A stretch of DNA of 64,000 nt from an uncultured Clostridia bacterium (GCA_937885645.1 CALABJ010000017.1:25270-89269), one strand, 5' to 3'. Positions 168 through 36,531 are shown, counted from the first letter of the stretch. The notes: generated by a model not told the origin, from the sequence alone. Numbers and translations are program-made.

Positions 168-881
168 TTATGAGCCAAGTTTTAAGATTTCTTTTTTCAG
201 TTGAGATATGATTTTCTTCTCTAGCCTTGAAATATATGACTGAGATATTCCCATCATATCTGCGATTTCTTTTTGCGTCATCTCATCTTTTCCATCGAGA
301 CCAAAGCGCAATTCAACAATTTGTCGCTCTCTTGCACCTAGTTTTGAAAAGGTTGCTCTCAACATTTCCTTCTCGTCCTTTTCCTCTACTCCGTGATAAA
401 TTTCGTCGGGGTCACTGCCTAGGACGTCGCTGAGCATAAGCACGTTGCCTTCATAGTCCGTATTCAACGGCTCATACAAAGACACTTCTGCTTTCATTTT
501 GCTTGTCTTTCTCAGATACATCAAAATTTCATTTTCAATGCACCTTGAAGCAAACGTAGCCAGTTTTATGTTTTTGTTTGGGTCATAGCCTGATATTGAC
601 TTAATGAGACCGATTGTGCCGATTGACACCAAATCGTCAAGTTCCACCCTTGTGTTGTCAAATTTCTTTGCTATGTACACAACTAGACGAAGATTTCTTT
701 CTATCAACGTAAGTCGGGCGTTTTCATCTCCTGACAACATTCGTCTTACCGTTTCTTGCTCTTGCTCAGGTGTCAATGGAGACGGCAGACTTTCACCAGA
801 AGATATGTAATCTACGCTATTTTCCGCCTTAAAGCCTAAAAAACGTAGTATTTTTGTCAAAAGTTTACGTAGCATAAGCAT
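168..881 (-). CDS. sigE: Sporulation sigma factor SigE (pro-sigma-E)
   Basis: 237 aa. Near-colinear with B. subtilis pro-sigma-E (IERNLRLVVYIAKKF, KLATFASRCIENEILMYLR, MGISQSYISRLEKKII). Has an N-terminal pro-sequence and directly follows spoIIGA. Confidence 0.93.
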   Translation of the reverse strand: MLMLRKLLTKILRFLGFKAENSVDYISSGESLPSPLTPEQEQETVRRMLSGDENARLTLIERNLRLVVYIAKKFDNTRVELDDLVSIGTIGLIKSISGYDPNKNIKLATFASRCIENEILMYLRKTSKMKAEVSLYEPLNTDYEGNVLMLSDVLGSDPDEIYHGVEEKDEKEMLRATFSKLGARERQIVELRFGLDGKDEMTQKEIADMMGISQSYISRLEKKIISQLKKEILKLGS

Positions 882-894
882 TCCCCTTCAAATT

Positions 895-1659
895 TCATTT
901 ATACGTCAAGGTGTTTTGCAAAATCAAATCACAACCTTTCATATCTTGCTCAGTAAGTGCACCGAAGCAATTATATGTATTTTGTCCACACCTCACCTCT
1001 TCAAGTTCAATTATGGGCATAGAACTTTCACCATTAACAGTCTTTACGTCCACAAATCCGTCATAAATGACGGAGTCCCCGTGGCGAATTAAATCTACTG
1101 CCGCTTTTGACAACAAAACCACTGGTCTTCCTGTCAGAGTGTCAGTCAAAGTATTTCCGCTGTCATAAAAACCTTTGAGCCACACAACTTTCCCTTTATA
1201 TTTCACTGAAACATCAAAAGTTTCCTTGCTATAAGCAGGCTTTTTGTGCAAAACGAACCACAAAACACCTTCCATAATGAGGATTGACAGCACAAGCACA
1301 CCAAGTACGGCATAACTTTTGAGATCAACACCAGTTAGGCTTGACAGTCCATACACTCCCCCTCCTAAGGCAAAGGTCAAAATAACGTACAACACCAATG
1401 AAACAATATAATCTTTCACCGAGGAGTACTTATCCACAATGACTACAAGCAGTGGGGCTAGTAAAATTTTGATAACTATTTGTATGACGGATGGCGCAAG
1501 AGGATACAAGACTGCAACAACAGTGCCGATGATGGCCGACAATGTTTGCCTGATCTTTTTCACTTTACGCCGTCTGCATAATGAAGTCGTGATCCCCAAA
1601 AGAAGATCGATCAAAAGGTTGTTGAAGATCACAATTTCCACATACACCGTCACAGGCAT
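895..1659 (-). CDS. spoIIGA: Sigma-E processing peptidase SpoIIGA
   Basis: 254 aa with N-terminal multi-TM region plus a C-terminal domain carrying the aspartic-protease-like motif FYDSGN. Synteny is ftsZ-spoIIGA-sigE. No Shine-Dalgarno before the ATG, so the exact start is uncertain. Confidence 0.85.
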   Translation of the reverse strand: MPVTVYVEIVIFNNLLIDLLLGITTSLCRRRKVKKIRQTLSAIIGTVVAVLYPLAPSVIQIVIKILLAPLLVVIVDKYSSVKDYIVSLVLYVILTFALGGGVYGLSSLTGVDLKSYAVLGVLVLSILIMEGVLWFVLHKKPAYSKETFDVSVKYKGKVVWLKGFYDSGNTLTDTLTGRPVVLLSKAAVDLIRHGDSVIYDGFVDVKTVNGESSMPIIELEEVRCGQNTYNCFGALTEQDMKGCDLILQNTLTYK

Positions 1660-4537: not shown

Positions 4538-5791
4538 TTAAACATTTTTTCTGACAATTTTTGCCTGAAGATTTGAGAATAAATATTCGATGTTTTCATA
4601 GCCTCTGTCAATATGCTCTACCCCACCGACCTTCGTGACACCTTTCGCTTTCAGCCCCGCAACAACAAGACCGGCACCTCCGCGCAAGTCGGTTGCAGTG
4701 ACATCTGCACCCAAAACATTCTTTCCTCTAATCAGCAATTTATCTTTGAAAACGTTGATTTCCGCACCCATCTTTTGCAATTCATTTGCATACAAAAATC
4801 TATTTTCAAAAACTTTTTCTTCAACCAAACTCTCCCCTCTGAGTTGACAAAGCATTGCCGTTGCTATGGGCTGTAAGTCAGTTGGGAATTTTGGATATGG
4901 GCCACTGAAAACGTCAAAAGGCTCAATTTGCCCATCGCTTTCAACCGTCACTCCGCCAACTGAGTCAATGACGACAAAATGTTTGGATACAAGTTTGGTG
5001 ACAAGTGCCCCTAGGTGTCTTATGTCGCAACCCTCAACGCGCACTTTTCCTCCAGTCAGTGCCACGGCAAGTATAATTGTGCCTGCCACAATTCTGTCAG
5101 TGACCGGCGTCACCGTTGTGCCGTACAGGCTTTCAACTCCTTGTATCTTTATGACCGACGTGCCTGCCCCTTGGATTTTTGCACCCATACCAATGAACAT
5201 ATCACAAAGTGACACCACCTCGGGCTCTCTTGCAACACCTATGAGTGTGGTTTTGCCCTTTGCTTTCACTGCAGCTGAAATCAAATTTTCAGTTGCACCG
5301 ACGCTTGGATATCGAAGCACTATTTCCGCTCCGTGAAGTCTATCCGCAGAGCACTCTACTCCGTCATCTAAAAGGCGGATTCTTGCACCTAGTTTTTCAA
5401 GTCCGTCAAGGTGAATATCAATGGGACGAGCACCGATTTTGCAACCGCCTGGGGTGTGCAATTTCACTTTGCCTGTTTCCACTAGAAGCGGACCTAGCAT
5501 AAAAACCGATGACCTCATAACTCCCGCCAAGTGCTCAGGAATATGATTGTTTTCAACCTTGCCAGAGGCAACAATATCTCTCCCATGCCAAGTTGTTTTA
5601 AGTGAAAGACACTCTCGTATTTTCACCATATTTTCTACGTCACTTATGTGGGGACAATCCTTTATCACAACGCTTTCGCTTGTGAGCATTGCGCCTGCAA
5701 GCATAGGTAAAACCGCATTTTTTGCAGAATAAACCTTGGTTTTGCCAAAAAGAGGATTCCCTCCAACTATCTCAAAATACTCATTTCTCAT
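4538..5791 (-). CDS. murA: UDP-N-acetylglucosamine 1-carboxyvinyltransferase MurA
   Basis: 417 aa EPSP-synthase-fold enzyme with the active-site region TPGGCKIGARPIDIHL. Confidence 0.93.
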   Translation of the reverse strand: MRNEYFEIVGGNPLFGKTKVYSAKNAVLPMLAGAMLTSESVVIKDCPHISDVENMVKIRECLSLKTTWHGRDIVASGKVENNHIPEHLAGVMRSSVFMLGPLLVETGKVKLHTPGGCKIGARPIDIHLDGLEKLGARIRLLDDGVECSADRLHGAEIVLRYPSVGATENLISAAVKAKGKTTLIGVAREPEVVSLCDMFIGMGAKIQGAGTSVIKIQGVESLYGTTVTPVTDRIVAGTIILAVALTGGKVRVEGCDIRHLGALVTKLVSKHFVVIDSVGGVTVESDGQIEPFDVFSGPYPKFPTDLQPIATAMLCQLRGESLVEEKVFENRFLYANELQKMGAEINVFKDKLLIRGKNVLGADVTATDLRGGAGLVVAGLKAKGVTKVGGVEHIDRGYENIEYLFSNLQAKIVRKNV

Positions 5792-29415: not shown

Positions 29416-30216
29416 ATGGGAACAGAAAACAAACACAAAGAAAACTTGAAAAAGGTGATGACCTACACTCCTCTGGTGCTGGCAATGTTGTTTGCAGTAG
29501 TGTTTTTTGGTGCATCGGTCATCGCTTTGATATACTCCGCAGTCACCTATCTCGCCTTTGGCTCTGCAATGGTGTTCCTCATTTTGTTTGGATGCTCAGT
29601 GCTTACGTTAGGCATCGGCACTGCCCTTGTGGACAAGTTCATTTCTCTCAAAAAGAAACTTGACGGCAAAGACGTCGCCCCCGAAAAGGAAGAACAAAAG
29701 ACTGCCGTTGTGAAAAAGAAATTCACCGTCACAATGCAAACAATTTGCTTTGGCGTTATGATTGTTGGCGCAGTGTTCATCATCGTGTCCGCAGGCCTTG
29801 GTGTCACAAGTGCAGACAAATGGGATGAGGCAACAAAGGACTATATCCTCTCCAACGGCTACTATCAAGACGCAAAGTCCTTTGAGGTGGCCTACGACAG
29901 CACCAACCCCGACAAACCCATCGATAAAATCGTCTTAGACCTTGATGGCAAAAACGCAGTGGTCATCTACACCGATGACAGTTTTGTCACCATAAAGGGA
30001 TATGAAAACTTCCCTGCACAACTGTCTGTCACTTACGGCGGTGGCACAATCGTCATCCACGAAAATCCCTCTCCCAAAAAAGACGGAAATCTTGAAAAAA
30101 TGCTCTTCTTCATCTTTGATGAAAATGAGGTTGAAGCACAAATCCGCATCTACTTGCCTAAATCCATGGAAGGACAAGTTGAATTTGCCGGCGACTACGT
30201 AGTTGCACAAAACTAA
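29416..30216 (+). CDS. Hypothetical membrane protein (three TM segments plus a beta-rich C-terminal domain)
   Basis: 266 aa with hydrophobic segments at about residues 17-75 and 108-130. No recognisable catalytic motif. Confidence 0.6.
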   Translation: MGTENKHKENLKKVMTYTPLVLAMLFAVVFFGASVIALIYSAVTYLAFGSAMVFLILFGCSVLTLGIGTALVDKFISLKKKLDGKDVAPEKEEQKTAVVKKKFTVTMQTICFGVMIVGAVFIIVSAGLGVTSADKWDEATKDYILSNGYYQDAKSFEVAYDSTNPDKPIDKIVLDLDGKNAVVIYTDDSFVTIKGYENFPAQLSVTYGGGTIVIHENPSPKKDGNLEKMLFFIFDENEVEAQIRIYLPKSMEGQVEFAGDYVVAQN

Positions 30217-30270
30217 AAAACAAGAAAATAAAAAATACGCTACCTATGGTAGCGTTTTCTTTTTGTCAAA

Positions 30271-31398
30271 TTACATTTTTTGCGTTTTTCCACCGCCTTT
30301 GAAGTTGTCGAGGACGCCTGTTGAGAAGTTGTGGGTGCGGGATTTGCGGTCTAGGTGGTCCTCTATTGCAGTGTTTATCATCTTGTCCAAAAGGTCTTTG
30401 AAGGTTATCCCTACGGATTCAAAGAGGTAATGCGCCAGTGACCCCGGCACGGTGTTGATTTCGTTGAGGTATATCTTTTCTCGTTTGACGTCAACAAGAT
30501 AGTCCACTCTCACCACCCCGCTCATTTCAAGTTCACGATATATCCGCTCAGTCAATGCCTTCACTTGGCTGTTGAGATCGCCTATTTCTGCAGGGATTAT
30601 ATGACCACCACCGCCCATTTTGCCTGTGGAGTATTTGTCGTTGAAAGACAAGAAATCACTGGTGGACAAAGGCTGTTCGGTTTCAGACACAACAATTTTA
30701 TCGCCGTCCTTGAATGCGGCGCAGTTGACTTCTATGAAGTCAGTGAGTTTTTCTTCAACGATAATTTTGTCATCAAACTCCCCTGCGATGTCTATTGCAG
30801 AAATCAAGTCCTCTCTTTTGTAGGCAACCCCTATGCCTATGCTGCTTCCAAGCCGTGCAGGTTTGACTATGAGTGGATATCGCAAAAAACTTTCTGCGTG
30901 GAAAAGGACTTTGTCACTGTCCCTCTCCCACTCCTTTCTTGAAAACACAAAGTGTTTCACTTGGTTGAAAAGCATATTTTCAAAAAGCTCTTTGCTGACC
31001 GCTTTGTCCATACAAAGGGCGGACGGCAACAAACTTGGGCTTGTGTGAGGCAGTCCGTTGAACTCAAAAACCCCAGATAGAACGCCGTTTTCACCCTCTC
31101 CGCCGTGACAACAATTGACAACAACGTCGGGCTTCAGTGCCACTGTCATCTTGTCTTTTTTGACGTAATAGAATTTGCCACTGACAAGCACCAATTTCTT
31201 ATGGTTTGAGGGCACAAAAGGTGCAAAATCCTTTATCGTTTTCATATCACCGGTGTAAAAATCACCCTCATACAAAAACACAGGAGTGACTGCATATTTT
31301 TTGTCATCAAGGTGTCGATAGGTTTGCACTGCGGTGATGACGGATATATCCCTTTCCACCGATCTTCCACCAAAAATCAAAGCAACTTTTTTCTTCAT
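30271..31398 (-). CDS. ddl: D-alanine--D-alanine ligase
   Basis: 375 aa ATP-grasp enzyme with FGGRSVERDISV, CHGGEGENG and NEINTVPG. Confidence 0.93.
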   Translation of the reverse strand: MKKKVALIFGGRSVERDISVITAVQTYRHLDDKKYAVTPVFLYEGDFYTGDMKTIKDFAPFVPSNHKKLVLVSGKFYYVKKDKMTVALKPDVVVNCCHGGEGENGVLSGVFEFNGLPHTSPSLLPSALCMDKAVSKELFENMLFNQVKHFVFSRKEWERDSDKVLFHAESFLRYPLIVKPARLGSSIGIGVAYKREDLISAIDIAGEFDDKIIVEEKLTDFIEVNCAAFKDGDKIVVSETEQPLSTSDFLSFNDKYSTGKMGGGGHIIPAEIGDLNSQVKALTERIYRELEMSGVVRVDYLVDVKREKIYLNEINTVPGSLAHYLFESVGITFKDLLDKMINTAIEDHLDRKSRTHNFSTGVLDNFKGGGKTQKM

Positions 31399-31406
31399 TT
31401 CTCCCC

Positions 31407-32984
31407 CTAATCTTCATATATGTCTGGCAAGTCGTTGAGAAGCAACAAGTTATCCCCTATGTGGAGAAAGTCCTTAAAGGACTTTTGTGCCTCTGCTAGG
31501 GTGTTGAAGCAGAGGATTTTGCCGTCAAAATCACTTAGCCCTCTTGCCACTTGCTCACCTCTTTTCCCTATGAGCACAACAACGTGAGCAACCATTGCTA
31601 TTTTTTTACCAAGAGCGTAGTTTTCCTCTTCTTCAAGGTCACCAAGTTCAACAAGCCCCGGTGTCACCACCACTTTTCTGCCCTCAAATTGTGACAGGGT
31701 GTCAAGAGCTTTTCTTGCCCCGTCTGGGTTTGAGTTGAAGGTGTCGTCAATGATGGTCATACCATCACGGACAATCAGTTGCAAGCGGTGTGGCACAGGC
31801 TCTACGTGGGCAATCCTCTCCACAATATGCTTTGGACTGATGCCAAGTGCAAAGGCCACTGCTGACGCCACTGCCAAATTCTCCACGTTGTGCTCGCCAA
31901 TGAGCCCAGTCCTTGCCCTATGAACCTCATCACCAAAATGCAAGTTGAACTCACTTCCTCGTTTTGACAAGGCTACGTCGCTTGCCCAGACTTCTCCACC
32001 GTTTCCTGCAAAATCTACGTTTGCCAAAATCTTGTTTTGCTTGTCTTCAATAATCTTTATAAGATTGTTGCTTACGACAGCAAATCCATCTCTTTTTAAG
32101 TCGGTAATGACCCTCATCTTTTCATCCACTATATTCTTTTGACTTTTGAATGTTTCAAGATGTTGAGAGTTTATCCCCGTCAAAACCGCCACGTCGGGGT
32201 TGACAATTTTCATCAATTTTTTGATGTCGCCGACTCGTCTTGCACCCATTTCCGCAATGAAAACTTCGTGGGACATATCAAGGTCCTTCACTGTCTTTGA
32301 AATGCCCATAGGAGTGTTGAAACTTTCAGGGGTTGCCAGCACCCTATATTTGATTTCAAGCAAATCTTTGAGATAGTTTTTCACTGAGGTTTTGCCGTAG
32401 CTTCCTGTTATCGCAATTTTGATGCAATCACTACGAGATAGAATAGCCCTCGTTTTCTTCTCATACCTCAAATTATTTAGCCTTTCAAATACGTTGACTA
32501 CGGACATTGTCAAAAGGAAAACAAGCGGATAGAATACTGGAAAAATAAAAAATCCTGCATAGCGGTAAAAGACATTTTCGCCACTGAGTACGCCGTTCAA
32601 GTAAAACAGAGTGCCAACAATCAATGCGCTTTCAACCACTGCCACGGACACAAAGCCTCGCACTGCTCTTTTTGTGTATTTAAGCGGTTTCTTTTTGTCG
32701 CCGTCTTCTGCAAAGTACAACACCATTTCCGCAATGAAAAAGAACATTGCAGTGAGAAACCCCCAAAACACCCGAGAGTGCAAAAAACTGACTCCAAAAT
32801 ATATCCCGCCAAACACCAGCACCGACACCAAGTCCATAAGATATGCGTTGCGGATATTCTTGCTTTTGAAAATCCCCTTCAATCGGTAATTGTCCTGCTG
32901 AATCACGTATATGTACGGCTTTGCCATAAAGGTGGTGGCAAGGATTGACAACAACAAAAAGAACCAGTTTCCCCTGACTAGCAT
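31407..32984 (-). CDS. murF: MurF-type Mur ligase with a polytopic N-terminal membrane domain
   Basis: 525 aa. Residues 1-170 contain about 4-5 hydrophobic helices. Then P-loop ITGSYGKTS, FIAEMGAR, DDTFNSNP, and a Mur ligase C-domain. Immediately upstream of ddl. Confidence 0.75.
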   Translation of the reverse strand: MLVRGNWFFLLLSILATTFMAKPYIYVIQQDNYRLKGIFKSKNIRNAYLMDLVSVLVFGGIYFGVSFLHSRVFWGFLTAMFFFIAEMVLYFAEDGDKKKPLKYTKRAVRGFVSVAVVESALIVGTLFYLNGVLSGENVFYRYAGFFIFPVFYPLVFLLTMSVVNVFERLNNLRYEKKTRAILSRSDCIKIAITGSYGKTSVKNYLKDLLEIKYRVLATPESFNTPMGISKTVKDLDMSHEVFIAEMGARRVGDIKKLMKIVNPDVAVLTGINSQHLETFKSQKNIVDEKMRVITDLKRDGFAVVSNNLIKIIEDKQNKILANVDFAGNGGEVWASDVALSKRGSEFNLHFGDEVHRARTGLIGEHNVENLAVASAVAFALGISPKHIVERIAHVEPVPHRLQLIVRDGMTIIDDTFNSNPDGARKALDTLSQFEGRKVVVTPGLVELGDLEEEENYALGKKIAMVAHVVVLIGKRGEQVARGLSDFDGKILCFNTLAEAQKSFKDFLHIGDNLLLLNDLPDIYED

Positions 32985-33700
32985 ACCCCTACTCCCTTTA
33001 CAAATGCGGACAAAATCTTGACAAAATTGGCAAGGTCTTCAACGTAAGCGTAGTGTCCGCCTTCAAGCAAAATCAACTTGCTATCCTTGATTTTCTTTTC
33101 AAGTTTGTTTGCCATGTATAAAGGCGTTTCCTTGTCGTTTTTACCCCACAAAATAAGGGTGGGGGTATTTATGTTTTCAAGGAGATAGGTTTGGTCATAG
33201 GACACCACTTTTTTGAAAGTTTCTTTCATTATAAATGAAAGAACTCGGTAATCTCGTGAGCCTTGTAGTCCACGAAAACCGAGTTTTTTCAATATCTTGT
33301 GTATTATGATTTTTGCGTAATATGATGGCTTCCGCCGAGGCTTCAAGCCGGCGCTGTCCACAAGCACTAGTCCATTTACTGCATCGGGAAATTTGCCTGC
33401 GATTTCTAGGGCTACTCTGCCACCAAAGGAGTGACCAACGATGATTGCTTTTTTCACCCCTTCCTTTTCAAGGACTGACAGCACTTCACCTGCGTAATCC
33501 CCAACCGAATATGGTCTATCAGGTTCAGGGGTGTCACCAAAGCCGTTGAAGTCCACAACTATGCTCCGACAAAAACTTTTCAGTCTTTCCGCAACAAATA
33601 AAAAGGCGGAAGCGTTTCCGCCCCAGCCATGTAAAAATACTACGTTTATGCCGTCACCGACTATCTTATAATTGATAACTCCTCCTATACGTCTAGCCAC
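32978..33700 (-). CDS. Alpha/beta-fold hydrolase
   Basis: 240 aa with HGWGG and the nucleophile elbow GHSFGG. Confidence 0.85.
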   Translation of the reverse strand: MARRIGGVINYKIVGDGINVVFLHGWGGNASAFLFVAERLKSFCRSIVVDFNGFGDTPEPDRPYSVGDYAGEVLSVLEKEGVKKAIIVGHSFGGRVALEIAGKFPDAVNGLVLVDSAGLKPRRKPSYYAKIIIHKILKKLGFRGLQGSRDYRVLSFIMKETFKKVVSYDQTYLLENINTPTLILWGKNDKETPLYMANKLEKKIKDSKLILLEGGHYAYVEDLANFVKILSAFVKGVGVC

Positions 33701-34116
33701 ATAATAAGGGCATCGTCACGATTGTTGTAATACTTCTTTCGTATGCCTGCCCCTTTAAAGCCGTAGCTTTCGTATAGGTGTATTGCGGGTGCGTTGTTGA
33801 CGTTGACTTCAAGTGTCATATGCTCTACGCCAACCTCTCTTGCCTTGCTGATGAGGGTTGCAAGAAGAAATTTGCCTATTCCTCTGCCTCTCTCTGTGTG
33901 CTTGACTGCTATGTTTGTTATATGCCCTTCGTCAAGGACTTTGTGAAAACCGCCGTAGCAAATGACCTCGTCACCACGGACACCAACGGTGTAAAATGCT
34001 TCCGCCGAATAAAGTTCGGGGATAAACATCGCTTTCGTCCAAGGTGTGTCGAAGGCCTCTTGTTCAATCTCTGCCATTTGGGCGAGATGTTCGTATTTTA
34101 GCGGTTCAAATCTCAT
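33685..34116 (-). CDS. rimI: Ribosomal-protein-alanine N-acetyltransferase RimI (GNAT)
   Basis: 143 aa GNAT with motif RGRGIGKFLL. Follows tsaB. Confidence 0.85.
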   Translation of the reverse strand: MRFEPLKYEHLAQMAEIEQEAFDTPWTKAMFIPELYSAEAFYTVGVRGDEVICYGGFHKVLDEGHITNIAVKHTERGRGIGKFLLATLISKAREVGVEHMTLEVNVNNAPAIHLYESYGFKGAGIRKKYYNNRDDALIMWLDV

Positions 34117-34678
34117 TATTTCTCTCTGCTTGTGATTTTCTCATATAGTAGGGCTCAAAGACGTTGACAAAGTCGTTTTCTGCCCATTTTGTGCGGACGA
34201 TATTGTCAAGAGCCGTGACCACACTACAACTTGTTGTAGTGATTTTGTCCTCAGGCAACGTGGCACTGTCCTTTTCTTCAACAAACTCCGTTGACACAAT
34301 CTTGCCATTTTCAAGCTTTGCTGTGTATGTGTGGCCGTGGCCTGCGTCAATGGCAAGCACTCCGCTTTCTCTACTATATGCAAGAAGTTCAAAGGAGTTG
34401 ACCGCAATTCTCTTTGCTCCCGTGCCATAGGCTATGGCCGTCACTGCGGATACACCAATACGTATGCCTGTAAATGAGCCGGGGCCAACAACCACTGCTA
34501 CGCCGTCAAGGTCTTTCACCTCAACTCCGCCTTCAGTAAGAAGGTCGGCTATTGTGGGCAAAATGAGAGATGAGTGACCGCTCTTGCCCACCTCAAAGGA
34601 TTTTGAAAGAGTTTTGTCACCATCAATCAACACAGCGGTGAAGGTTGTAGAGGTTGTATCAACTGCAAGTATTTTCAT
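34106..34678 (-). CDS. tsaB: tRNA t6A37 biosynthesis protein TsaB (YeaZ), short form
   Basis: 190 aa with MKILAVDTT, GPGSFTGIRIG. Sits between tsaE and rimI. Confidence 0.85.
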   Translation of the reverse strand: MKILAVDTTSTTFTAVLIDGDKTLSKSFEVGKSGHSSLILPTIADLLTEGGVEVKDLDGVAVVVGPGSFTGIRIGVSAVTAIAYGTGAKRIAVNSFELLAYSRESGVLAIDAGHGHTYTAKLENGKIVSTEFVEEKDSATLPEDKITTTSCSVVTALDNIVRTKWAENDFVNVFEPYYMRKSQAERNNEI

Positions 34679-35819
34679 ATCTTACGTTAAATTTCCTATT
34701 CTTTTTGTCAACTGTGACATCGATATAGATGACTTTGTCACCAAGTGAGGTCAGCTTGTTCCACTCAATGACCGTCACCGTATCTCCGCCGATGGCGTCT
34801 TCGACGCCAAGTTCATAGAGGTCGTCTTCGTGCTCGATGCGGTACATATCAAGATGGTTCAGTTTCAGTCTGCCCTCTTCATATACGTTCATTATGGTGA
34901 ATGTGGGGCTTGTCACCTCACTCTCTACTCCAAGAGCCTTTGCCAAACCCTTTGTGAAGGTCGTTTTGCCTGCGCCGAGGTCACCGCTAAGGATAATCAC
35001 CTCTCCGCCCATCAAAGTGTCTGCAACACGCTTTGCAAGGGCTTCAGTGTCCTTCACACTTCTTGAAATGTGTTCTCCCTCTATTTCGCCGTCGTCAACA
35101 GTCTTGTCGGGCACTTTTGAAAACGCCAACTTGAAGAGTTTGCCTGTTGCCTTGTAAAGCACAAATGTCAATCCTGCGTTGCCTGCATATTTCAGTACGT
35201 TGAACGGAAGTATGGTTGTGGGGAGCATTGTGAGGACAACACTGCGCTCTACACCCATAAATATGGGTGTAAATAATATATTCCAAAGGAGCATCGTCAC
35301 AACACCACTCAAAAAACCTGTCAACAAACCGATGAGCGCGCCTTTCAGGTTGTGTTTGAATTTATAGACAAGACCTGCACTCAACACAAATACGCCTGTT
35401 GAAAGCAAGTTCATTGCTATGCCGATAAGTCCGCTTGACGCACTGACTGTAAAACCTTGAATAAGTGACACTATAATAGTGATGACAAGACCTGCCACAG
35501 GACCGTACATAAAGGATGCGATGAGGATGGGCACGTCACTGGGTGAATATTCAAGGAAGGGTGCGGCAAAATACGGGATATGCACCGTGCATGCAAGTGT
35601 CACCGCAAGGGCGGCTAGCACTGCCATCCCACAAAGTTTTCTTGTGGGAATACGTATCTTTTTCTTTGAAAGTTTTCCTTTGGAAAACTTGCCTTCGTTA
35701 TCGCTGGATGTTTCTGCGCCGTCTGCCACGGCGGTTTCAGCTTCTACATCCTCTGCCACTTGAACTTCGGCGACTTCTTCAACCAAAGTTTCTGTTTGCT
35801 CATTAAGTTTTTCTGTCAT
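34659..35819 (-). CDS. tsaE: In-frame fusion of a riboflavin ECF-transporter S component (RibU) and the t6A ATPase TsaE
   Basis: 386 aa from MTEKLNEQ. Residues ~60-250 are RibU-like (FLEYSPSDVPILIASFMYGPVAG ... ILPFNVLKY). Residues ~270-386 are TsaE (GDLGAGKTTFTKGLAKALG, VTSPTFT, HLDMYR). An FMN riboswitch lies upstream. Confidence 0.8.
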   Translation of the reverse strand: MTEKLNEQTETLVEEVAEVQVAEDVEAETAVADGAETSSDNEGKFSKGKLSKKKIRIPTRKLCGMAVLAALAVTLACTVHIPYFAAPFLEYSPSDVPILIASFMYGPVAGLVITIIVSLIQGFTVSASSGLIGIAMNLLSTGVFVLSAGLVYKFKHNLKGALIGLLTGFLSGVVTMLLWNILFTPIFMGVERSVVLTMLPTTILPFNVLKYAGNAGLTFVLYKATGKLFKLAFSKVPDKTVDDGEIEGEHISRSVKDTEALAKRVADTLMGGEVIILSGDLGAGKTTFTKGLAKALGVESEVTSPTFTIMNVYEEGRLKLNHLDMYRIEHEDDLYELGVEDAIGGDTVTVIEWNKLTSLGDKVIYIDVTVDKKNRKFNVRYENTCS

Positions 35820-35840
35820 AAGAATATCCTTTCGGGCATT

Positions 35841-35990
35841 AAAAAACCCAAGAATTATTCTCGGGGGAAACAAAAATCTGCCTCTTTCATCCGGACTATA
35901 CCGTCGGTTGAGGAATTGCACCTCATCAGCACGCAATGCGTGGTCGTGGACTGTCACCACCGGTAGGGAATCTCACCCTGCCCCGAAGCA
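35841..35990 (-). promoter_or_regulatory. FMN riboswitch (RFN element) with a terminator expression platform
   Basis: The minus strand reads CUUCGGGGCAGGGUGAGAUUCCCUACCGGUGGUGACAGUCCACGACC...GAGGUGCAAUUCCUCAACCGACGGUAUAGUCCGGAUGAAAGAGGCAG. It is followed by the hairpin CCCGAGAAUAAUUCUUGGG plus U6 at 35865..35841. Confidence 0.93.
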
Positions 35991-36155
35991 ATAATATTTT
36001 ATTATGTTATATTGTTGTTGTCAATGACTAAGCACAATAAAGTGCCAATTTTTGTGATTTTTGTGCGGTTTTTGATAAAAACAGTGGGTTTACACTGCAT
36101 TACAACTCAAAACTTAGTTTTGAATATTTTCTCCTACACGGGCAAAAATAGTGGT

Positions 36156-36464
36156 ATGTATCTTTCAACCGCAGAAATTGACACAGCAACCTATATTGCC
36201 CTATCAAATGATAACGTATTATCCGCTCGCACCTTTGAGCACGATGGATACGTGGTCATTGCCCTGCTCACCGGACCGATTTTTTCACAAACTGAGCGTA
36301 TAGCACTAAAAAATTCAGTGCAAGCCGACGTCAGTGATAGGCTTGATGTGAGCCTTGAACAGGTCATAGTCACCTTTGATATGGAACTTTATAGGGCCAT
36401 GGATGAGGTTGATGACTCAGACAAGCAAAAACTCCTTGCCATGGCACTGGAACGCTGTGATTGA
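36156..36464 (+). CDS. Hypothetical small protein (possibly YhcN/YlaJ-like sporulation protein)
   Basis: 102 aa from MYLSTAEID. The ORF is open from 36012, so the start is uncertain. Candidate promoter TTGAAT(36120)-18-AAAAAT places ATG 36156 at +1. The functional guess is weak. Confidence 0.4.
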   Translation: MYLSTAEIDTATYIALSNDNVLSARTFEHDGYVVIALLTGPIFSQTERIALKNSVQADVSDRLDVSLEQVIVTFDMELYRAMDEVDDSDKQKLLAMALERCD

Positions 36465-36531
36465 CCTATAAATAGGTCAATACTCATATTGATTAAGGGG
36501 ACAGAGGTAAACTCTGCCCGCTATTTTGTTG

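Follow-up and report, generated by a model that had tools for sequence, protein, structure and literature searches.

An in-frame fusion of a RibU-type transporter component with TsaE behind a flavin mononucleotide riboswitch in uncultured Clostridia

A 64,000-nucleotide stretch of DNA from an uncultured Clostridia bacterium (GCA_937885645.1, CALABJ010000017.1:25270-89269; hereafter the window) carries a flavin mononucleotide (FMN) riboswitch followed by one continuous open reading frame (ORF), in which a RibU-type S-component of an energy-coupling factor (ECF) transporter runs in frame into TsaE, a P-loop ATPase of tRNA N6-threonylcarbamoyladenosine (t6A) synthesis. The ORF, here called ribU::tsaE, has 386 codons (34659..35819) and lies, like every feature of the locus, on the minus strand. 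An earlier reading of the DNA alone (the sequence-only reading) had proposed such a fusion with no stop codon at the junction, and the ORF list and the Pfam and NCBIfam domain matches bore this out. The gene call of the Prokaryotic Genome Annotation Pipeline (PGAP) in a 97%-identical genome is also 386 amino acids long (P0174). The parts themselves are textbook; what is new is the fused architecture and a riboswitch that heads t6A and cell-wall-like genes.

The membrane half of the protein is an ECF S-component of the RibU type at residues 59-233 (35121..35645). It matches Pfam ECF_trnsprt (PF12822) at residues 61-222 (2e-17, 64.2 bits vs 30.7) and ECF-ribofla_trS (PF07155) at residues 59-224 (30.9 bits vs a cut-off of 26.7), and by sequence it is closest, among solved structures, to RibU of T. 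maritima (5kbw, 1.8e-17) and RibU of S. aureus (3p5n, 1.8e-12). An AlphaFold2 model was built from 53 fusion sequences (mean predicted local distance difference test score, pLDDT, 83.4). It comprises a disordered stretch (residues 1-51), a helical membrane domain (59-233), a linker (234-247), and an alpha/beta domain (248-383). The membrane domain has the S-component fold with a pLDDT above 90, and in a Foldseek comparison it was superposed on T. maritima RibU (5kbw) with a template-modelling score (TM-score) of 0.93 and a root-mean-square deviation of 1.4 A over 173 aligned columns. The sequence-only reading had assigned the first ~250 residues to RibU. The S-component with its six helices was recovered as proposed, while the first ~55 residues turned out to lie outside RibU. 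This N-terminal extension (residues 1-55, 35655..35819), acidic and then basic, is predicted to be disordered (pLDDT 34-42). It varies in length and sequence among relatives, and its ratio of nonsynonymous to synonymous substitution rates (dN/dS) is 0.39-0.68, against about 0.1 for both domains.

The C-terminal half (residues 248-386, 34662..35078) is a TsaE (YjeE/YdiB) P-loop ATPase domain. It matches Pfam TsaE (PF02367) at residues 253-373 (4e-37, 127.4 bits vs 26.6) and the NCBIfam TsaE equivalog model TIGR00150 (113.4 bits vs a cut-off of 60.1), and it contains the TsaE motifs GDLGAGKTTFTKG, SPTFT, and HLDMYR. The motif residues are invariant in 53 aligned fusion proteins: Walker A (GxxGxGKT, G279-T286), SPTF (S304-F307), HxDxYR (H322, D324, Y326, and R327), and EW (E352 and W353). 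Among solved structures, it is nearest to TsaE of T. maritima, as present in the TsaB2D2E2 complex (6n9a_E), and to YdiB of B. subtilis (5np9), each matched at about 1e-24. Since the alignments to the PDB chains begin near residue 13-15 of the free proteins, the fused TsaE domain is complete. It had indeed been recognized as a complete ATPase from the DNA alone, with a length of ~115 residues that has to be corrected to ~135. The TsaE-domain model was superposed on YdiB/TsaE structures with TM-scores of 0.74-0.79. The solved TsaE chains that were found, with 141-184 residues, all belong to free proteins, and no solved chain was found to span both domains in a Foldseek search with the fusion model. 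The TsaE family is otherwise described as a free-standing soluble protein of ~140-185 residues, a description that the fusion does not fit. This is a variant architecture and no ground to exclude the domain from the TsaE family.

The two domains are joined by a linker of about 14 residues (234-247, 35079..35120), which includes the sequence GAGGGAG. Its pLDDT of 71-75 is the lowest between the two domains, and residues 241-243 fall below 50. The tryptic peptide spanning the junction would be TVDDGEIEGEHISR. On which side of the membrane does TsaE lie? The model has six membrane helices, with basic flanks at the first helix (KGKLSKKKIRIPTRK) and at the last one (YKATGKLFKLAFSK), and both termini of S-components are cytoplasmic. 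Because the number of helices is even, basic flanks are found on both sides, and the topology of S-components is established, the C-terminus of the membrane domain, and hence TsaE, is predicted to be on the cytoplasmic side.

The fusion is not restricted to the window. When 5.8 billion protein clusters were searched, the Pfam domains of the S-component and of TsaE were found together in more than 100 clusters (90% identity level), at 39-98% identity. An exhaustive HMMER search of 1.84 billion representatives, at the level of 50% identity, gave at least 31 whose match ran unbroken over both domains. In the DNA of 17 other loci (L001-L008, L040, L120, L122, and L124-L129), the frame runs without interruption from the RibU part through Walker A of TsaE. 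These fused loci come from separate assemblies of roe deer, sheep, rumen, and chicken samples and of other metagenomes; L001, for example, comes from the cecum of a roe deer and belongs to a relative with 97% identity, Clostridia bacterium RGIG4097. The length and sequence of the linker vary between lineages while the frame is always kept. A further scan of metagenomes with the fusion alignment used peptide patterns of TsaE only; 77 of its 80 loci were free-standing tsaE genes, and the rest were L040 (fused) and L050 and L091 (unfused). When the window was compared with L002-L004 and L126, synonymous sites were saturated (dS above 1), and dN/dS came to 0.06-0.13 in the RibU half and 0.05-0.16 in the TsaE half. 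Thus, both halves are under purifying selection.

It was considered whether the fusion could be an artefact, that is, whether a sequencing or assembly indel had taken out the stop and start codons between two genes. The window is a metagenome-type assembly, and such records can vary at single bases, as seen in the contig of a related metagenome-assembled genome (MAG), L039, where a one-base difference puts an in-frame TGA in the ribU part. On the other hand, the 17 other loci stem from different studies and hosts, and all of them have the same uninterrupted frame, at identities between 97% and about 40%. The architecture is also shared by at least 31 clusters at 50% identity, and the linkers differ in length yet keep the frame. 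There is virtually no chance that the fusion is such an artefact. The sequence-only reading had itself raised the worry of an assembly frameshift and proposed a search of protein databases for the same architecture; the search has now been run with the result given above, and the open frame in independent assemblies disposes of the worry. The comparison of sequences confirms that the fusion is real and conserved, an arrangement far beyond chance.

Two irregular records were also found. In L039 (1..600, NCBI JAFVUI010000205.1), a G-to-T difference generates the in-frame TGA in the ribU part, and PGAP then called a 141-amino-acid TsaE (P0173) from an ATA codon. This MAG is near the window's organism, with P0173 in the same 90%-identity cluster. 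Either the sequence is in error at the TGA, or the fusion has been split naturally. I rejected P0173 as a separate gene, given the interrupted ribU part on its contig and its start at ATA. The second record, P0084 (218 amino acids, on a 1848-nt ENA contig), has a TsaE domain with 93% identity to that of the window, preceded by an N-terminus that resembles a pyruvate formate-lyase-type domain (PF02901). A chimeric assembly is the probable explanation, and not a second type of fusion.

How did the fusion arise? Some related Clostridia have ribU and tsaE as unfused neighbors (L009, L010, L014, L015, L024, L050, and L091), and six of these seven adjacent pairs have an FMN riboswitch upstream of ribU. 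The order is the same, ribU and then tsaE-tsaB-rimI, but the stop codon of ribU and the Shine-Dalgarno (SD) sequence and start codon of tsaE are retained. In L009, the two genes are in the same frame and split by one TAA, with GGGGAGG upstream of this stop codon and a TTG start codon 3 nt past it. Thus, a single substitution would fuse the L009 genes. L010, L015, and L024 have short spacers between ribU and tsaE, with an own SD and start for tsaE. L014 has a spacer of about 190 nt (4606..4802) with a clear terminator (GGAAACCCTCTCC...GGAGAGGGTTTTTG) and a TTGCAA/TATAAT promoter, so that ribU and tsaE are transcriptionally uncoupled there. From these relatives, it is most likely that the fusion resulted from the loss of the ribU stop codon in an ancestor that had an FMN-riboswitch ribU directly upstream of tsaE-tsaB-rimI. 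Because the fusions share a G-E/K-x-x-S-x-S pattern at the junction, they most likely go back to one event.

The gene order (obg-yhbY-)nadD-rsfS, small ORF, riboswitch, ribU::tsaE, tsaB, rimI, hydrolase, murF-like, and ddl is kept across the fused clade, and the fused TsaE domain occupies the exact slot that the free-standing tsaE has in the unfused relatives, directly upstream of tsaB-rimI. The conserved slot and order indicate that the domain is the orthologue of ordinary tsaE and not a stray paralogue. This bears on a different view of the fusion, in which the transporter acquired a TsaE-like domain, perhaps as an ATPase that regulates or energizes RibU, and this domain no longer takes part in t6A synthesis. 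Physical fusion often signals a functional partnership, and the scan of window ORFs turned up no EcfAA'T genes. Against such a recruitment speak the canonical tsaE slot, the score well above the cut-off of the TsaE equivalog model, and the invariance of all signature motifs. Moreover, the TsaE half retains about 60% identity between subgroups, versus about 28-32% for the RibU half, there is no second tsaE in the window, and no close free-standing paralogue appeared among the protein matches. I regard a recruited domain as very improbable.

Is TsaE also made as a separate protein? To see this, I surveyed 55 codons before Walker A in 15 fused loci for in-frame ATG, GTG, and TTG, for rarer start codons, and for SD-like motifs upstream of them. 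In none of the linker positions was a canonical start codon with an SD conserved across lineages. This agrees with the sequence-only reading, which had seen no suitably spaced ATG, GTG, or TTG at the junction and had pointed to a GAGGGAG lying 5 nt before an ATT codon. The latter motif is indeed present (GAGGGAG at 35081..35075 and the in-frame ATT at 35069..35067, residue 251), but it is not conserved. It was found only in the window and in the near-identical L001, while the equivalent codons in L002-L004 are GAAGGA..ACA, GAAGGC..ACA, and TTGGAAAG..GTA, and the motif is also missing in the more distant fused loci. The energy of hybridization to the anti-SD sequence was also calculated. Each fused gene has 4-17 sites of -6 kcal/mol or stronger, at positions that are not conserved; the GAGGGAG of the window (-7.1 kcal/mol) is one of 11 such sites in its own gene, and five of the 15 fused loci have no site of this strength in the linker window. 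Conservation of synonymous sites, compared in six sequences, stayed level along the gene (0.56-0.83, mean 0.65) and did not rise at the junction; the power of this comparison is low with so few sequences. The GAGGGAG and ATT pair is, judging from these alignments, a lineage-specific by-product of Glu-Gly-Glu codons. I also considered whether the Gly-Glu or Gly-Lys residues of the linker, with their GGAGA-like codons, are an active relic of the ancestral tsaE SD; this was rejected, since no positionally conserved site was found by hybridization energy.

A free, soluble TsaE might nevertheless be produced in addition to the fusion, by initiation at the ATT (35069) or by proteolysis of the linker. 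Weak initiation behind GAGGGAG is possible in the window and L001, a flexible linker modelled with low confidence could be cleaved after translation, and PGAP did call a 141-amino-acid TsaE from the neighboring ATA codon in the MAG with the interrupted ribU (P0173, L039). Yet ATT is a poor initiation codon, the other fused loci have ACA, GTA, GAA, and similar codons in its place, the window motif is hardly distinguished among the SD-like sites of the gene, and no excess of synonymous conservation is seen at the junction. A separately made TsaE therefore seems unlikely. With neither a conserved start codon nor a conserved ribosome-binding site at the junction, TsaE is most likely made only as a membrane-tethered protein. 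The tethering had been anticipated in the sequence-only reading, and it is the reading best supported by the sequences.

The leader of ribU::tsaE begins with an FMN riboswitch aptamer (RFN element, 35875..35994), which was found with Rfam RF00050 over the full length of the model (positions 1-138; 107.5 bits vs a gathering threshold of 66.2, E=4.8e-24). The aptamer directly adjoins a sigma-A-type promoter, TTGACA-17-TAAAAT (35996..36024, an 11/12 match), the top promoter-like site in a scan of the 6.6 kb from 30000 to 36600. In most related loci, a near-consensus promoter lies at the same place, with the end of the -10 hexamer about 2 nt before the aptamer, while the flanks diverge. The aptamer is followed by an expression platform (35841..35868), which the terminator scan and the hairpin energy identified as a hairpin, CCCGAGAA-UAA-UUCUUGGG, with its stem at 35865..35847 and a run of six U residues (TTTTTT). 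A textbook aptamer with a terminator platform had been read from the DNA alone, and both elements stood. By inspection of the sequence, a ribosome-binding region, AAAGGA (35822..35832), precedes the ATG at 35819 by 7 nt. L002-L004 have the identical region, and the leader including terminator and SD is nearly identical between the window and these loci, despite the saturated synonymous sites in the gene. An FMN riboswitch also precedes the fused gene in 14 of the 17 other fused loci, and this control, in the window as in those loci, suggests that the RibU half is probably specific for riboflavin.

When pairing of the P1 stem was enforced, the leader was folded with the terminator hairpin formed (-48.3 kcal/mol). 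When the 3' arm of the terminator was left out, the aptamer 5' strand UUCGGGG (35987..35981) paired with CCCCGAG (35866..35860; -44.7 kcal/mol). As CCCCGAG overlaps the 5' arm of the terminator, this pairing would constitute the antiterminator. The leader is thus predicted to follow the standard OFF logic, P1 and terminator against antiterminator, and a platform that couples P1 formation to expression is present by prediction. The terminator of the window is weak, with a stem of eight pairs including one G-U (-9.1 kcal/mol). Hairpins with a U-run follow the aptamer in most related loci examined, and in some relatives they reach -13 to -22 kcal/mol. The weakness of the window terminator would fit substantial read-through.

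Two further ORF calls touch the leader. Many ENA and Logan gene calls (e.g. P0001-P0013) give a 433-amino-acid version of the fusion that starts at a GTG inside the aptamer and has 47 spurious residues (window 35820..35960, minus strand). On the plus strand (36156..36464), a small ORF of about 102 amino acids diverges from the riboswitch promoter; it is kept in L001-L004, L006, and L008 (30-93% identity) and matched no Pfam or NCBIfam family.

Downstream of ribU::tsaE, the genes are packed as the sequence-only reading had described, each overlapping the next or ending within 8 nt of it, as the ORF coordinates and domains attest. The tsaB gene (34106..34678; TIGR03725, 120 bits vs 69) shares 20 nt with the end of the fusion ORF and, with rimI behind it, comes after the fusion gene in every related locus. 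It is overlapped by 11 nt by rimI for the ribosomal protein S18-alanine N-acetyltransferase (33685..34116; TIGR01575, 131 bits vs 86), which is overlapped in turn by 16 nt by an alpha/beta hydrolase gene with a GTG start (32978..33700; Pfam Abhydrolase_1 and Abhydrolase_6). The next gene encodes a MurF-like Mur ligase (31407..32984; Mur_ligase_M and Mur_ligase_C) and overlaps the hydrolase gene by 7 nt. Its top NCBIfam model is murF (TIGR01143) with 240.6 bits, below the cut-off of 288.6, and the protein may be a divergent MurF or another Mur-type ligase; about 185 residues precede its Mur_ligase_M domain. After a gap of 8 nt follows a ddl-like gene for a D-alanine--D-alanine ligase (30271..31398; Dala_Dala_lig_N and Dala_Dala_lig_C), whose assignment is by best match (TIGR01205, 239 bits, below the cut-off of 245.65). 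A bidirectional terminator-like hairpin, seen on both strands, ends the gene string (30237..30255). Neither a second tsaE, ribU, or tsaB nor any tsaD was found within the 64-kb window, from which little follows for the genome as a whole. In the wider window, a SpoIIGA-like protease and a sigma factor resembling sporulation sigma factors are encoded at 168..1659 (minus strand), which is consistent with a spore-forming lineage of Clostridia, and three tRNA genes lie at 41634..42003.

How far does the FMN control reach? Because TsaE cannot be translated without the ribU start codon, its synthesis would be tied, in this lineage, to transcripts that pass the riboswitch. Flavin gating of the t6A genes and the cell-wall genes as well is plausible from the gene arrangement. 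The control may instead serve the transporter mainly, with tsaB, rimI, murF-like, and ddl expressed from internal promoters, so that flavin would have a small effect on t6A and cell-wall synthesis. Weak promoter-like sites do exist on the coding strand inside the operon (35498..35470, 35302..35273, 34144..34115, and 33537..33508), and several relatives have intergenic gaps before murF and ddl. These sites all score 9/12, however, and the 16 promoter-like sites found, against 9.7 +/- 2.9 expected in shuffled sequence, correspond to about the chance rate. The window leaves no intergenic space for promoters between the operon genes, all its junctions being overlapping or at most 8 nt apart, and an internal promoter would not rescue TsaE, which lacks its own start codon.

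A limited reach of the control could also be supported by a terminator-like hairpin, GGGGCGGAAACGCTTCCGCC, with a U-run (33593..33624, minus strand), about 60 nt after the rimI stop codon within the part of the hydrolase gene that codes for HGWGGNASAFLF. It was found in most relatives, and its U-run is written as TTT TTR TTT even in genomes with a GC content at third codon positions of 0.73-0.77, in which only 26-29% of Phe codons are TTT and only 8-9% of Leu codons are TTR. Its covariation is no more than coding needs would give: 85% of the cells pair, no better than in the shuffled control, and the 5' arm is fixed by the HGWGG codons (HGWGG...SAF). The hairpin may mark the 3' end of a ribU::tsaE-tsaB-rimI unit and limit read-through to the murF-like and ddl genes.

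One fused subclade has dispensed with the riboswitch. In L124 (3268..5010), L127 (1295..3010), and L129 (1209..3005), the operon lies behind a T-box leader and a gene for a TrpB-like pyridoxal-phosphate enzyme, and the whole fused operon is driven by its own TTGACA-17-TATAAT-type promoter. L124 and L129 have TTGACA-17-TATAAT exactly, and the -35 hexamer of the subclade lies within or overlaps an inverted repeat. As the start codon comes almost directly after the promoter in this subclade, the mRNA may be leaderless. A threonine-related link from the T-box and the enzyme to t6A was considered and rejected, as the enzyme is TrpB-like (NF009057, 676 bits). This subclade, too, is in line with control that serves mainly the transporter. 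Taking both sides together, I consider it possible, though somewhat unlikely, that the effect of flavin is confined in this way.

The following mechanism is proposed. RibU would anchor the polypeptide in the membrane and hold TsaE at the cytoplasmic side on the flexible linker of about 14 residues. Transcription would start at the strong promoter adjoining the aptamer. When FMN is scarce, the aptamer 5' strand would pair with the 5' arm of the terminator, and RNA polymerase would read ribU::tsaE-tsaB-rimI and probably further. When FMN is bound, P1 would form, the weak terminator would fold, and most transcripts would stop. Synthesis of TsaE would thereby follow that of RibU and, in this lineage, depend on the FMN status. 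When flavin is plentiful, basal read-through of the leaky terminator would presumably supply the small amounts of TsaE, TsaB, and RimI that are needed, and the tethered TsaE would still serve the TsaBD complex. I consider this package probable, namely a tolerated fusion by stop-codon loss, a TsaE working from a membrane tether, and a leaky riboswitch; confidence in the fusion itself is higher than in the whole package. There is only a small chance that the fusion is adaptive, or that flavin or the membrane is functionally coupled to t6A synthesis.

Several observations weigh against the proposed mechanism. The predicted template-modelling score of the fusion model is 0.58, and the relative placement of the two domains is not confident. 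The fused subclade of L124, L127, and L129 has no FMN riboswitch, and FMN control is therefore not intrinsic to the fusion. The GAGGGAG motif before the ATT and the flexible linker, both discussed above, belong here as well.

The locus can be compared with several known systems. The FMN riboswitch-ribU (ypaA) genes of Bacillota likewise have an RF00050 aptamer and an OFF-type platform with a RibU-type S-component first. Here, in contrast, the ORF runs in frame into TsaE, and tsaB, rimI, the hydrolase gene, the murF-like gene, and ddl follow without intergenic spacers. The described FMN regulon consists essentially of riboflavin synthesis and transport. The ydiB-ydiC-ydiD-ydiE operon of B. subtilis (tsaE-tsaB-rimI(-tsaD)) likewise has a TsaE complete by sequence and fold, followed by tsaB and rimI, while in the present case tsaD lies outside the operon and the window. 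In contrast to the free cytosolic TsaE/YjeE/YdiB, the TsaE described here lacks its own start codon and continues from the C-terminus of a membrane protein with six helices. Subunits of t6A synthesis are known to be fused to other proteins, as in archaeal Kae1-Bud32, TsaC/HemK of M. genitalium, and the modular enzyme TsaD-TsaC-SUA5-TcdA (PMC4615747, PMC10484737). The partners in those fusions are soluble and related to the pathway or to translation, whereas here the partner is a membrane transporter, and two t6A reviews that list such fusions (Kae1-Bud32 and TsaC/HemK) mention no membrane or transporter partner for TsaE.

In a full-text search, from whose coverage most subscription journals are absent, no paper was found that contains both "FMN riboswitch" and "TsaE", and the papers found with RibU and YjeE, or with riboflavin, TsaE, and riboswitch, were unrelated. 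The sequence-only reading had known of no description of this fusion, and no paper linking TsaE/YjeE with RibU or an FMN riboswitch was found here either. Fusion proteins are already present in NCBI, ENA, JGI, and Logan, and the NCBI name is "tRNA ... ATPase subunit type 1 TsaE". The fusion is thus in the databases but not described in the literature found.

The value of the finding is moderate, as none of its parts is unfamiliar, the stop codon may have been lost neutrally, and the riboswitch is already missing from one subclade. TsaE is thought to cycle on and off TsaBD, resetting the enzyme after each turnover. If TsaE exists only as the cytoplasmic tail of a transporter, then t6A synthesis tolerates or uses membrane localization, or TsaE has a second role. 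A link of YjeE to the cell wall was suggested earlier from gene neighborhood; one PDB entry still names YjeE by a cell-wall role (6nak/6s84), and murF-like and ddl genes share the operon here. Should the fusion be adaptive, the TsaBDE machinery would be placed at the membrane, and t6A capacity, translational fidelity, and growth would depend on flavin supply in riboflavin-dependent gut Clostridia. Should the two halves be coupled in the alternative way, the ATPase cycle of TsaE and the transport cycle of RibU would regulate each other directly. For annotation, the "TsaE" names hide the transporter half from reconstructions of riboflavin uptake in uncultured gut Clostridia. For riboswitch biology, the locus has an FMN riboswitch heading genes that are essential in most bacteria, and not only genes of flavin synthesis or uptake, and it would offer a natural test of how leaky such a riboswitch is in vivo.

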